Origin: Escherichia coli
GTDB taxonomy: Bacteria > Pseudomonadota > Gammaproteobacteria > Enterobacterales > Enterobacteriaceae
DNA length: 64,000 bases
NCBI RefSeq assembly: GCF_029227855.1
Contig: NZ_CP074356.1
Direction: 5' to 3' (one strand)
Part shown: positions 6,825-18,686 of the stretch, in pieces
Numbering within the stretch: the stretch's first letter is position 1
How the letters are laid out: every line of letters begins with the position of its first letter
Program-made: the position numbers and the translations under genes
The notes under the pieces: model-generated
The model's database searches: none
Seen by the model: the letters and a program-made list of their open reading frames with translations, nothing else
What the model was told of the DNA's origin: nothing

Positions 6825-8231
6825 TTACAGTCGTTCTTGAATAAGTTTGCCTAATTGTTTAACCGCCTGTTCTTCGCGCTCGCCCCACTGCCACGCGGTA
6901 TTAAAACGGAAAAAACGTGACCAGTTTTCACCGGTAGAAAACATTTTACCCGGCGCAATACTGATATGATGCGCCAGTGCCTCCAGGCTTAATTCGCCCG
7001 CATCTAACGGCGCGGGGAGCTCCAGCCAGAGAAAATAACCGCTGTCATTATGATGAATTTTCACTTCCGCAGGCAGATAACGCAGCAGTGCCTGCCAGGC
7101 ACGTTGTTTACGCTCCGCAAGCTGGCGACGCAAGCGACGAAGATGGGCGTCGTATCGGCGCGTGGAAAGGTAATCCACCAGTGCAAGCTGCATCGGTGAG
7201 CTGGTGGAAAGCGTACTCATCAACTGCAAGCGTTGAATTTTACGGGCATGTTTTCCGGCGGCGACCCAACCAATACGAAAACCAGGCACCAGACATTTCG
7301 AAAACGAAGAGCAATACAAAACGCCATCGTGGCGATCCCACGCTTTCGCAGGCAGCGGTTTTTCCCGTCCAAAATAAAGTTCGCTGTACACGTCATCTTC
7401 AATCAGCGTTACGTTGTACTGATTGAGCAACGCTACCAGACTCGCTTTTTTCTGCGGCGTTAAGGTAAATCCGAGTGGATTCTGGCTATTAGTCATCAGC
7501 CAGCACGCTTTCACCGGATACTCCTGCAACGCCAGTTCCAGCGCCTTGAGATCAATCCCTTCTTTAACGTCCGTCGCCACCGATAACGCCTTCAGCCGTA
7601 ACCGCTCCAGCGCCTGCAACGCGCCGTAGAAACAAGGATTCTCAACTATCACCCAATCGCCCGGTTCAGTTACCGCTTGCAAACTGAGGTTTAATGCCTC
7701 TAACGCCCCGGCGGTAATGACAATTTCATCAGGAGAGATAGTGATGCCCTGTAAGGCATAGCGACGAGCAATAGCCTGACGCAGTTCTGCGTTTCCTGGC
7801 GGTAAGTTTTCAATCACGCTCATCGCCGTGGCGGTTTTGCTTACCTGCGCCAACGAGCGGTTGAGTTGTTGAAGCGGAAACAGTCGCGGGTCGGGAAAGG
7901 CCGAGGCAAACGGAACTACCGACGGATCGCGACTGGCCTGCAACATATCAAAAATATAGGTGTTGATATCGACTGCTTCATCTCGAGTGACAGGAATGAC
8001 TGGCGCTTTCGGCATTTTTATTGCCTGTGGCGCAACGTAATAACCCGATTGCGGTCGAGCGATAATATGTCCCTGACTTTCGAGCAACTGATAGGCATGG
8101 CTGACAGTCATAAAGCTCATGCCAGAAAGCGCCACCTGGTCACGCAACGAAGGCAAACGATCGCCAGGTTGCCAGATACCCGACGCAATCTGCTCGCGTA
8201 ATTGTTCTGCAAGCTGCTGGTATTTTTTCAT
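6825..8231 (-). CDS. ydcR: MocR/GntR-family transcriptional regulator with aminotransferase-like domain, YdcR (468 aa)
   Basis: N-terminal winged-HTH plus C-terminal fold-type-I PLP domain in the translation; located upstream of the ydcSTUV-patD operon. Confidence 0.9.
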   Translation of the reverse strand: MKKYQQLAEQLREQIASGIWQPGDRLPSLRDQVALSGMSFMTVSHAYQLLESQGHIIARPQSGYYVAPQAIKMPKAPVIPVTRDEAVDINTYIFDMLQASRDPSVVPFASAFPDPRLFPLQQLNRSLAQVSKTATAMSVIENLPPGNAELRQAIARRYALQGITISPDEIVITAGALEALNLSLQAVTEPGDWVIVENPCFYGALQALERLRLKALSVATDVKEGIDLKALELALQEYPVKACWLMTNSQNPLGFTLTPQKKASLVALLNQYNVTLIEDDVYSELYFGREKPLPAKAWDRHDGVLYCSSFSKCLVPGFRIGWVAAGKHARKIQRLQLMSTLSTSSPMQLALVDYLSTRRYDAHLRRLRRQLAERKQRAWQALLRYLPAEVKIHHNDSGYFLWLELPAPLDAGELSLEALAHHISIAPGKMFSTGENWSRFFRFNTAWQWGEREEQAVKQLGKLIQERL

Positions 8232-16037: not shown

Positions 16038-17018
16038 ATGCGCAAATATCGTCTAAGTGAAGAACAGCGAGCCTTTAGTTATCAGGAAGATGGCACTAAA
16101 AAAAGTGTGTTATTACGGCAGATTATCGCCATTAGCGATTTTAACGATGTGATAGCAGGAACCGCTGGCGGCTGGATCGATCGCGAAACGGTGTTAGCAC
16201 AGGAAGGAAATTGCTGGATTTACAACCAGAATGCTATTGCGTTCGGCGGAACGGTGATTTCCGGTAATACGCGTATCACCGGCACCAGCATGCTGTGGGG
16301 AGAGGTTTACGCAACGGATAACGTCTGGATCGATAATAGTGAAATCAGCCAGGGTGCATATATAAGTGACAGTGTCACCATTCATGACTCATTAGTTTAC
16401 GGGCAATGTAGAATATTTGGTCACGCCTTAATTGATCAACATTCTATGATCGTCGCCGCACAAGGCTTAACGCCCGACCATCAACTCCTGCTCCAAATTT
16501 ATGATCGCGCAAGGGTTAGCGCCTCGCGTATTGTCCACCAGGCACAAATTTATGGCGATGCCGTCGTCCGGTATGCTTTTATTGAACATCGCGCCGAAGT
16601 TTTTGATTTTGCCAGCGTTGAAGGTAATGAAGAGAACAACGTCTGGCTATGCGATTGCGCTAAAGTCTACGGTCACGCGCAGGTGAAAGCTGGCATAGAA
16701 GAAGATGCCATTCCGACGATTCATTACAGTTCGCAGGTGGCGGAATATGCCATTGTGGAAGGTAATTGTGTGTTAAAACATCATGTCTTGATTGGCGGAA
16801 ATGCCGTGGTATGTGGCGGACCGATTCTGCTCGACGAGCACGTTGTCATACAAGGTGAGAGCCGTATTACAGGTGCGGTGATAATTGAAAACCATGTGGA
16901 GTTAACCGACCACGCCGTCGTTGAAGCCTTTGATGGCGACACGGTTCATGTCCGTGGTCCAAAAGTCATTAACGGCGAGGAACGCATTACTCGAACGCCA
17001 CTGGCAGGGTTATTGTGA
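16038..17018 (+). CDS. ydcK: Hexapeptide-repeat (left-handed beta-helix) protein YdcK (326 aa)
   Basis: Repeated hexapeptide pattern in the translation; divergent from tehA. Confidence 0.85.
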
Positions 17019-17549
17019 ATCGATAATAAGCGCGTATAAGTTCACATCATCATAGGCATCATTCAGGAACTCAGCCTGTTTCAGGCAACCTTCAAGGATA
17101 AAACCATTGCGCAAAGCGACCTGGTTGCTTTGCGCATTGTCCACCCGACATTTGATCACGAAGCGTCTAAGTTCACCAGACTGAGCGTAATGATGAATCA
17201 ATGCCTGCAGCGCCTGAGAAATGATCCCCTGCCCCTGATGAGATTCGTCCAGCCAGTAGCCGATTTCAGCGGTTTTATTCAGTGGTTCAATACGATTAAA
17301 CGAGATAACGCCGATAAGTTCATCTTCTTTGAAAATCATGAACATTTTGGCATATCCGCGTTGATGCAACATTACATTGCCCTGCACCGTTTTTCGCGTG
17401 TCCTCTTCACTTTGAACAAACTGCGGCCAGTTTAGCGACTGCTGTAACCAGGTTTTATTTTTACAGATTAACTGATAAAGAGGTGTGACGTGATTTTCTG
17501 CAACAGCATGTAATTCAAGTGATTCGCTTACTTTTATCGTTTCAGTCAT
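17010..17549 (-). CDS. rimL: Ribosomal protein L7/L12 N-acetyltransferase RimL (179 aa from the ATG at 17549)
   Basis: GNAT acetyltransferase fold; start [14 protein letters not shown] preceded by GGAG. Confidence 0.9.
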
Positions 17550-17580
17550 CTTATCTCCAGTCACTCCATGCAGTTGTTAA

Positions 17581-18289
17581 TAAATATCCTCCGGCATAGC
17601 CGGAGGTTTTTCAAATGCGCCTATAAGGCTCTCTTACCAGCCGCGCCCTAACAGGCGCACACGATCTGACATTTGCATCCAACTTCGTTACTTACGGCCC
17701 GTAAACGGGCTGCCCGGATAGGGAATCGATAACTGCTCTCCCATTTTATCCTCTTCAAGCTGGTGCTTTGTGTAATCCTGTATCTTCGCCGTGTTCTTAC
17801 CCACTGTATCGACGTAGTACCCTCTGCACCAGAACTCCCTGTTCCTGTATTTGAATTTCAAATCACCAAACTGCTCGTAAAGCATCAGACTGCTTTTCCC
17901 TTTCAGATATCCCATAAACCCGGATACGCTCATTTTAGGCGGGATCTCCACAAGCATATGGATATGATCTGCACAGCATTCAGCTTCCAGAATCCGTACG
18001 CTTTTCCACTCACACAGCTTTCTCAAAATACTGCCTATTGCTCTACGCTTCTCTCTGTAGAACACCTGTCTTCGGTATTTTGGCGCAAAAACTATGTGAT
18101 ATTTACAGTTCCATCGGGTGTGCGCTAAGCTCTTTTCGTTCCCCATTGGGACCCCCTTTTGATTTCTTGTTTGACACTTGCAGTTGCCAGACCGCAAGGT
18201 GTTTTAACAAATCAAAAGGGGTTTTAATAACAGGCTCAAAGCTGAAAGCTTTCCGGAACCCCCAGCCTAGCTGGGGGTTTTCTGTGCAC
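17581..18289 (-). mobile_element. IS200-family insertion sequence (IS200/IS605 family), copy 1, ~709 bp
   Basis: Single Y1 (HUH) transposase gene; subterminal hairpins (cctccggc ata gccggagg at 17588..17606; aacccccagc cta gctgggggtt at 18257..18279); a stem-loop sequesters the tnpA RBS; boundaries set by comparison with copy 2 (ambiguous by about 2 nt at one end and a 6-nt A run at the other). Confidence 0.85.
17688..18146 (-). CDS. tnpA: IS200 TnpA, Y1 HUH transposase (152 aa from ATG 18146)
   Basis: HuH motif HIHMLVEIP and putative catalytic Tyr in ...IQDYTKHQ...; AGGGGG RBS 6 nt upstream of the ATG. Confidence 0.9.
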   Translation of the reverse strand: MGNEKSLAHTRWNCKYHIVFAPKYRRQVFYREKRRAIGSILRKLCEWKSVRILEAECCADHIHMLVEIPPKMSVSGFMGYLKGKSSLMLYEQFGDLKFKYRNREFWCRGYYVDTVGKNTAKIQDYTKHQLEEDKMGEQLSIPYPGSPFTGRK

Positions 18290-18312
18290 AAAAAAGCCGC
18301 CTGGCTGGCGGC
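18290..18312 (-). terminator. Intrinsic terminator of ydcH (gccgcc/ggcggc hairpin plus T6 on the minus strand); the T-tract directly abuts the IS200 end
   Basis: Seen directly. Confidence 0.5.
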
Positions 18313-18322
18313 TTAGGAAAGT

Positions 18323-18547
18323 TTACACCTCTTTGACGCTCTCCTGCTGCAGGATTTTGAGCATCTCATCTTTTAACTGTAGCTTTTGTTTTTTCATGCG
18401 GACCACTTCCGCATTGTACCCTCGACCGTCGGAACCTTCCTTTCTGGCAATTTCATGATCAAGTTTATTGTGTTTATCGAACAAGGACATAAAGCGAGGA
18501 TTTTCGTTTTTCAGACGGGATATTAAATCTCGATATTCTGGAAACAT
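18323..18547 (-). CDS. ydcH: DUF465-family small protein YdcH (74 aa from ATG 18547)
   Basis: ORF MFPEYRDLISRLKNENPRF... with AGGGAG RBS. Confidence 0.85.
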   Translation of the reverse strand: MFPEYRDLISRLKNENPRFMSLFDKHNKLDHEIARKEGSDGRGYNAEVVRMKKQKLQLKDEMLKILQQESVKEV

Positions 18548-18686
18548 ACGCACTCCCTGTTAGTGGCTGACAAGGTGTATCTGAAATACACACCATCAGA
18601 TTACTCATTTAACTTAGGGAAAAATGCGAGCGGGATCGTGTTTAACCAGACGGCACCTCCCGAAGAAGGTGCCGAAGAAAAAACGA

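Follow-up and report, generated by a model that had tools for sequence, protein, structure and literature searches.

The mechanistic model of IS608 transposition combines a TnpA dimer that has trans active sites with rotation of the helix alphaD (PMC3597680). The catalytic tyrosine of IS608 TnpA is carried on alphaD and tethered by a flexible loop; alphaD completes the HUH site in the other subunit of the dimer, and it rotates between the trans and cis configurations during strand transfer (PMC3597680). Ellis et al. 2015 (PMC4513863) concluded that the TnpA of Salmonella IS200 is active in Escherichia coli, and gave the variant TnpA-Y125F as 'cat. dead'. Moreover, a mini-IS200 was mobilised in trans by plasmid-borne TnpA, and tnpA of IS200 is almost untranslated, its expression being restricted by a weak promoter, a stem-loop that sequesters the SD sequence, art200 and Hfq (PMC4513863).

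The window (the whole 64,000-nucleotide stretch of E. coli DNA that was analysed) carries two copies of IS200C, which are located in the following surroundings:

17579-18289, minus strand: IS200C copy 1, 711 bp, GTGCACAG...ATATTTATT, between the T-run of the ydcH terminator and rimL
17688-18146, minus strand: tnpA of copy 1 (Thr126 allele), encoding a 152-aa Y1 HUH transposase, identified as an open reading frame, by Pfam Y1_Tnp and by the annotation WP_275877226.1 in strain JNEC-KY178
17010-17549, minus strand: rimL, one flank of copy 1
18323-18547, minus strand: ydcH, the other flank of copy 1
43123-43833, minus strand: IS200C copy 2, 711 bp, 3' of the paaY terminator, between pdxI and paaY
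43232-43690, minus strand: tnpA of copy 2 (canonical Ile126), annotated as WP_000526135.1

A 169-aa open reading frame starting with TTG was also considered as tnpA of copy 1 and was dropped; the ATG at 18146 has the SD sequence AAGGGGGT upstream of it and fits the annotation. When the two copies were compared, 7 of the 711 positions differed: two in the 5' UTR, four that are synonymous and a single non-synonymous one, I126T.

18237: 5' UTR, non-coding
18232: 5' UTR, non-coding
18000, 17937, 17919 and 17805: synonymous changes in codons 49, 70, 76 and 114, respectively
17770: codon 126, ACA (Thr) in copy 1 versus ATA (Ile) in copy 2

According to the original prediction, which was made from the sequence of the window, the two TnpA proteins differ at the residue following a putative catalytic tyrosine, with QDYTKHQ in copy 1 and QDYIKHQ in copy 2. 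Both open reading frames read exactly this way (KIQDY125-T126-KHQ129L in copy 1 and KIQDY125-I126-KHQ129 in copy 2), and the tyrosine, which had been placed at about residue 125 of 152, is precisely residue 125 of 152. The position next to the tyrosine is referred to below as Y+1. The codons concerned are these:

17769-17771, minus strand: codon 126 of copy 1, ACA (Thr), with the SNP at 17770
43313-43315, minus strand: codon 126 of copy 2, ATA (Ile)
17772-17774, minus strand: codon 125 of copy 1, TAC (the catalytic Tyr)
17760-17762, minus strand: codon 129 of copy 1, CAG (Gln at Y+4, aligned to Q131 of IS608)
17958-17966, minus strand: codons 61-63 of copy 1, His-Ile-His (the HUH motif)

At codon 126, ATA, the rarest isoleucine codon in E. 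coli, was kept in all IS200 subtypes that were aligned and is removed by the Thr allele.

The tyrosine had been proposed to correspond to the catalytic residue of Y1 transposases, and alignment to the IS200/IS608 TnpA structures put it where it was expected. In a full-length sequence search of the PDB, the residues aligned with Y125 were Y127 in IS608 and Y132 in ISDra2, and Y125F of IS200 TnpA serves as a published catalytic-dead control; on these two grounds Tyr125 is the catalytic tyrosine. The 44-aa C-terminal peptide searched alone against the PDB gave no match. Q129 aligned with Q131 of IS608 and Q136 of ISDra2, glutamine being present at this position in 74 of 82 diverse homologues, and H61-I62-H63 aligned with the HUH motif of IS608, ISDra2 and the Sulfolobus TnpA proteins; H61 and H63 were invariant in a 38-sequence alignment. 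Both proteins scored far above the cut-off of 23 for Pfam Y1_Tnp (PF01797), with 126.2 bits for the Thr copy and 130.7 bits for the Ile copy. In the AlphaFold (AF2) model, which had a mean pLDDT of 74 and about 81 over residues 111-130, residue 126 was located inside helix 119-127. When this model was compared with the PDB by Foldseek, the top 29 matches were all IS200/IS605 TnpA proteins (E from 4.5e-11 to 3.1e-9), and among the matches PDB 2XO6 is annotated as the ISDra2 Y132F mutant. The Salmonella IS200 proteins belonging to the same 90% cluster have Ile126.

Isoleucine at Y+1 is the ancestral residue and is almost invariant in IS200/IS605 TnpA. All five solved TnpA families read Y-I-x-x-Q at this place (YIEEQ in the two Sulfolobus proteins, YIENQ in IS608 and YIESQ in ISDra2). 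From clusters at 50% identity the best 150 representatives were taken, of which the 82 that aligned through the tyrosine formed the diverse set; the Y+1 residue in this set was Ile in 75, Val in 3, Met in 3, Arg in 1 and Thr in none. Among 133 cluster representatives with 79% identity or more, the counts were 124 Ile, 7 Met, 1 Ser and 1 Thr, the single Thr being this variant itself. The survey of the Y+1 residue that had been suggested thus found that Thr is not common, either in the diverse homologues or in the close relatives. In the 38-sequence alignment I126 was nearly invariant, as were I122, Y125 and Q129, and with Thr in place of Ile at residue 126 the score for Pfam Y1_Tnp was 126.2 bits, down from 130.7. 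A conserved aliphatic residue at Y+1, which is a regularity of the family and not a formal criterion, is lacking in copy 1 and is present as Ile in copy 2. By this measure copy 1 is the unusual copy of the two, and the Thr at Y+1 marks it as an atypical allele that is still a member of the family.

To find the Thr allele elsewhere, 5,426 complete E. coli genomes were searched with a 31-mer centred on the SNP, which needs a near-exact match to seed and misses Thr alleles having a further SNP within about 14 nt. Only JNEC-KY178 yielded the Thr form, at 2 places; the Ile form was found in 2,041 genomes, with 7,366 places among them. A 61-mer located 8,581 IS200 places, and only one record contained an exact Thr match. 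In the exact-protein look-up, the Ile protein was present on at least 1,000 contigs; the Thr protein was limited to an ENA metagenome contig of 757 bp and a single NCBI genome, in which it has two entries (WEP38736.1 and WEP39461.1). RefSeq already lists the variant as WP_275877226.1, and in kind it is a commonplace point variant of a familiar element. This accession is copy 1 of JNEC-KY178, whose neighbouring proteins are numbered WP_275877225.1 and WP_275877227.1; because the neighbours carry consecutive numbers (WP_275877225.1-WP_275877227.1), we infer that the older NCBI genome comes from this clone and has a Thr copy in the corresponding place.

Over its first 50 kb the window showed 5 differences from E. 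coli JNEC-KY178 (NZ_AP045174.1, a clinical isolate from Japan), these being single-base differences at 7245, 15825, 18864, 30065 and 39215. For this reason the window was assigned to the JNEC-KY178 clone, where it would represent a sister isolate rather than necessarily that isolate. Copy 2, at the paaY site, was identical at 711 of 711 positions to the fadR-site copy of JNEC-KY178, so that the clone contains a second group of IS200C haplotypes, to which copy 2 belongs; the fadR insertion of IS200 is common to many genomes. The IS200C copy of strain EC556 differed from copy 1 at exactly three positions, and on this basis the three substitutions of copy 1 were considered derived. These private SNPs are the following:

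IS position 58: A>T, 5' UTR
IS position 353: C>T, synonymous
IS position 520: T>C, I126T

Judged from these comparisons, Thr126 is a recent derived allele that is private to one E. coli clone.

The second Thr tnpA lies outside the window, at 3,551,514-3,551,972 of JNEC-KY178, between rna and rnk. The element at this place is identical to copy 1 at 711 of 711 positions, all three private SNPs included, and JNEC-KY178 is the only one among the 5,426 genomes with an IS200 at the rna-rnk site. No other intact IS200C was found at the rimL-ydcH site in the 5,426-genome collection, the other occupants of this site being an IS200 subtype that is about 4% divergent and an IS200C split by an IS3, with 12 differences from copy 1. 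In the JNEC-KY178 blocks 1.85-1.90 Mb and 3.36-3.51 Mb tnpA was absent. The JNEC-KY178 genome has 24 IS200C copies, 2 of which carry Thr and about 22 Ile. Since an identical copy sits at the clone-specific rna-rnk site, the simplest reading is that the Thr-bearing element transposed at least once after it had gained all three mutations. The duplication shows that the ends of this element are functional, and it could fit either Thr-TnpA or Ile-TnpA as the source of transposase. Activity of Thr-TnpA is not implied by the duplication, because about 22 Ile copies could act in trans.

The two Thr copies could also have arisen by gene conversion or recombination between existing IS200 copies, with no transposition of the Thr element, and the allele would then be silent on mobility. 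The 24 near-identical copies per genome would offer ample substrate for such exchange, and an ENA contig has Thr on a mixed haplotype beside fadR, resulting from either conversion or chimeric assembly. We consider this explanation very improbable, as the identity extends over the full 711 bp and includes three private SNPs spread over positions 58-520, as IS200 at rna-rnk was found in none of the other genomes among the 5,426, and as rimL-ydcH was without any other intact-ended IS200C in the collection. Both Thr copies are therefore new insertions and not old copies that were overwritten. In the ENA contig itself (ERZ15609863 NODE_94981, 757 bp), a flank of fadR is joined to an IS200 with Thr126 and without the other two private SNPs of copy 1. 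This contig was considered as a pointer to a second Thr copy at fadR and was rejected in this role, since the fadR copy of JNEC-KY178 encodes Ile and the combination was absent from complete genomes, in which two queries gave no exact match to the ENA haplotype. This contig is probably a chimera of collapsed repeats, or alternatively an intermediate haplotype, and shows only that the Thr allele exists in that sample. A sequencing or assembly error might be suspected behind any single-base difference within a multi-copy repeat. However, the Thr codon is found in the window, at two loci of JNEC-KY178, in the older NCBI genome and on the ENA contig, so that an error is refuted by independent assemblies and its probability is negligible. 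Transposition of the Thr-bearing element after the mutations thus remains our preferred reading of the two copies.

The substitution is a recent T-to-C transition, from ATA to ACA, in an intact IS200C, and falls on the residue that follows the nucleophilic Tyr125 on alphaD. On the wheel of an ideal helix, with Y125 set at 0 degrees, Q129 falls at 40, I122 at 60, I126 at 100 and L130 at 140 degrees; I126 is the central member of the apolar stripe I122/I126/L130, which adjoins the catalytic pair Y125/Q129. As suggested by helix periodicity only, this stripe would dock alphaD on the protein body and so bring the tyrosine to the HUH site in the other subunit. In the literature searched, no mutation or discussion of the corresponding I128 of IS608 was found, and this residue is unmentioned in He et al. 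2013 (PMC3597680). The replacement of Ile by Thr would remove a methyl and a methylene group and add a hydroxyl, giving a beta-branched side chain that is nearly Val-shaped.

That a change at Y+1 could affect the activity of copy 1, as had been suggested, is plausible from the position of the residue, but in practice this claim is weakened, because the Thr element was itself copied, TnpA acts in trans and about 22 Ile copies are present. We lean towards a neutral-to-mild weakening of TnpA rather than a strong loss of its function, as Thr is nearly isosteric with Val, which occurs naturally at Y+1. The Thr allele marks a young IS200C sub-lineage in one clone, accompanied by two further private substitutions, and weak selection on the coding sequence of a single copy would allow a mildly harmful missense change to hitch-hike on the mobile element. 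Selection on the protein of copy 1 would be weak because TnpA is trans-acting, about 22 Ile copies exist and IS200 TnpA is barely translated; we infer that the Ile copies provide buffering in trans. At the same time, Thr was absent from all 82 diverse homologues, and purifying selection could be strong and the effect greater than 'mild'. Taken further, I126T would strongly impair or inactivate TnpA, making copy 1 and its rna-rnk twin non-autonomous passengers of Ile-TnpA, and mixed Thr/Ile dimers might in addition slightly poison the pool. Such an outcome would agree with the near-invariance of Ile at Y+1 from archaea to bacteria and with Thr being unseen in the sampled diversity, with the decrease of 4.5 bits in the Pfam score, with the location of the residue beside the nucleophile on a mobile helix whose positioning is essential, and with the demonstrated trans-mobilisation of IS200 ends in view of the about 22 Ile copies in the genome. 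We nevertheless regard strong loss as the less probable outcome, and a rather doubtful one, given that Val and Met are tolerated at Y+1 and Thr is isosteric with Val, and that residue 126 is neither a catalytic nor a metal-binding side chain. Moreover, both Thr copies occupy clone-specific and hence recent sites, which is unexpected for a handicapped element unless trans-mobilisation is efficient. These same clone-specific sites, together with the expansion of IS200C to 19-36 places per genome in this E. coli lineage, could be taken to mean that recent IS200C insertions in the clone are driven by I126T, acting as a gain-of-function or de-regulated variant. We find this hardly credible, since relatives without Thr have as many copies or more (up to 35-36), only 2 of the 24 copies carry Thr, and no family-wide sign was seen that Thr was ever favoured. 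It is likewise a long shot that I126T re-tunes or raises the activity through the dynamics of alphaD (e.g., by an easier trans/cis rotation) and that the Thr sub-lineage is the active IS200C 'master' in the clone; if true, this would explain the clone-specific sites of both Thr copies and would provide a natural hyperactive IS200 TnpA allele. Thus, a neutral-to-mild effect of I126T is the outcome that we favour.

As an element, copy 1 is intact. In comparison with the empty K-12 site it is an exact insertion with no target duplication. The IS200C ends are GTGCAC... and ...TTTATT, with subterminal hairpins at both ends and no terminal inverted repeats. The regulatory and terminal parts of copy 1 and its target are located as follows:

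18152-18279, minus strand: left-end regulatory region of copy 1, overlapped by the antisense art200/STnc490 and containing the SNPs 18237 and 18232
18256-18278 (IS nt 12-34), minus strand: terminator-like left-end hairpin, coordinates in agreement with Ellis 2015
18152-18221 (IS nt 69-138), minus strand: 5'UTR stem-loop sequestering the SD, coordinates in agreement with Ellis 2015
17588-17606, minus strand: subterminal hairpin of the right end (CCTCCGGCTATGCCGGAGG), at a distance of 9 nt from the terminus, fold -15.9 kcal/mol
18290-18312, minus strand: target of copy 1, the ydcH Rho-independent terminator GCCGCCAGCCAGGCGGC + TTTTTT, abutting the IS left end

The Rfam model STnc490 (RF01405) matched positions 18156-18279 with 145.2 bits at a gathering score of 56, and the SD AAGGGGGT and the stem-loop of nt 69-138 in copy 1 are as described in PMC4513863. 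The regulatory parts are intact in copy 1, the stem-loop and the SD being unchanged.

The surroundings of the insertions were also compared. At all five distinct IS200C sites examined, the left end directly follows a stable hairpin and a T-rich stretch ending in TT. The five belong to ydcH, paaY, rna, opgD and fadR, whose Rho-independent terminators they form, and their folding energies range between -11 and -21 kcal/mol.

18290-18312 and 43834-43863 of the window, and about 41340-41370 of locus L014: terminator adjoining the IS left end

The right end of the IS has the same layout (a hairpin followed by ATATTTATT), and the targets therefore look like mimics of the right end. In a published table IS200C is noted simply as inserting in a 'T-rich region' (PMC6963479), and the literature on the targeting of terminators by IS200 yielded nothing beyond this entry. 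At the same nucleotide position between rimL and the ydcH terminator (the 17579/18289 junctions), three IS200 haplotypes were observed in different strains: copy 1, an IS3-interrupted IS200C that is 12 differences away (strain 64.1) and a subtype that is 30-31 differences away (746 and Z0117EC0005). This distribution points to the junction as a probable insertion hot spot that received repeated independent hits. Twelve genomes among the matches listed have IS200C after the opgD terminator (EC556 was examined); they were considered as carriers of the same rimL-ydcH insertion, and what they carry is actually a separate insertion between opgD and ydcH. At the opgD site EC556 has the haplotype of copy 1 without the 3 private SNPs. 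In the window the opgD-ydcH spacer (18554-18686) is a clean empty site, and the IS lies 366 bp away, after the ydcH terminator. This arrangement would fit a scarless excision of the element followed by its re-insertion nearby ('peel and paste'). In one group of E. coli, which includes porcine ETEC, EC556 and JNEC-KY178 among others, IS200C occupies 19-36 places per genome, and its sites vary between the strains examined in this high-copy group.

The import of these results beyond the biology of IS200 is small, as the element, its catalytic residues and the exact protein variant were already present in public databases. I126T, which occurs naturally and alters a position of the Y-I-x-x-Q motif that hardly varies, could serve as a cheap probe of alphaD positioning in Y1 transposases. 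In addition, the three private SNPs provide a clean marker of a recent IS200C move in an E. coli clone, and a recent move bears on the common view of IS200 as essentially immobile.

Among the known systems, TnpA of Helicobacter pylori IS608 (PDB 2A6M and 2VJV) has the HUH/Y1 fold in common with IS200 TnpA and carries its tyrosine on the C-terminal helix alphaD, and its motif Y127-I128-x-x-Q131 matches Y125-I126-x-x-Q129 of IS200. The identity between the two proteins is about 30-35%, and IS608 differs in also having tnpB and in targeting TTAC. The TnpA of ISDra2 from Deinococcus radiodurans (PDB 2XM3, and 2XO6 for Y132F) has the same fold, with Y132-I133-x-x-Q136 aligned to the IS200 motif; it is a distant homologue, from an element that has tnpB and whose target is TTGAT. 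TnpA-REP/RAYT (PDB 4ER8, Foldseek E = 3.9e-5) has a related HUH/Y1 fold that binds DNA hairpins. Unlike IS200 TnpA, it is domesticated, single-copy and REP-associated, with 16% identity, and belongs to another family. The closest system is IS200/IS200C of Salmonella and E. coli (IS200/IS605 family, IS200 subgroup), whose 707-711-bp layout is the same as that of the window copies. The left-end terminator hairpin, the SD-hiding stem-loop of the 5'UTR, art200/STnc490 and the right-end hairpin are common to both, and so are the single 152-aa tnpA and the lack of inverted terminal repeats and target duplication. Copy 2 of the window encodes the canonical IS200C protein WP_000526135.1, and copy 1 departs from the common IS200C haplotype by three substitutions, I126T among them. 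Copy 1 agrees with the IS200 subgroup and its TnpA in every structural feature that was examined, and its sole departure is the Thr at Y+1.
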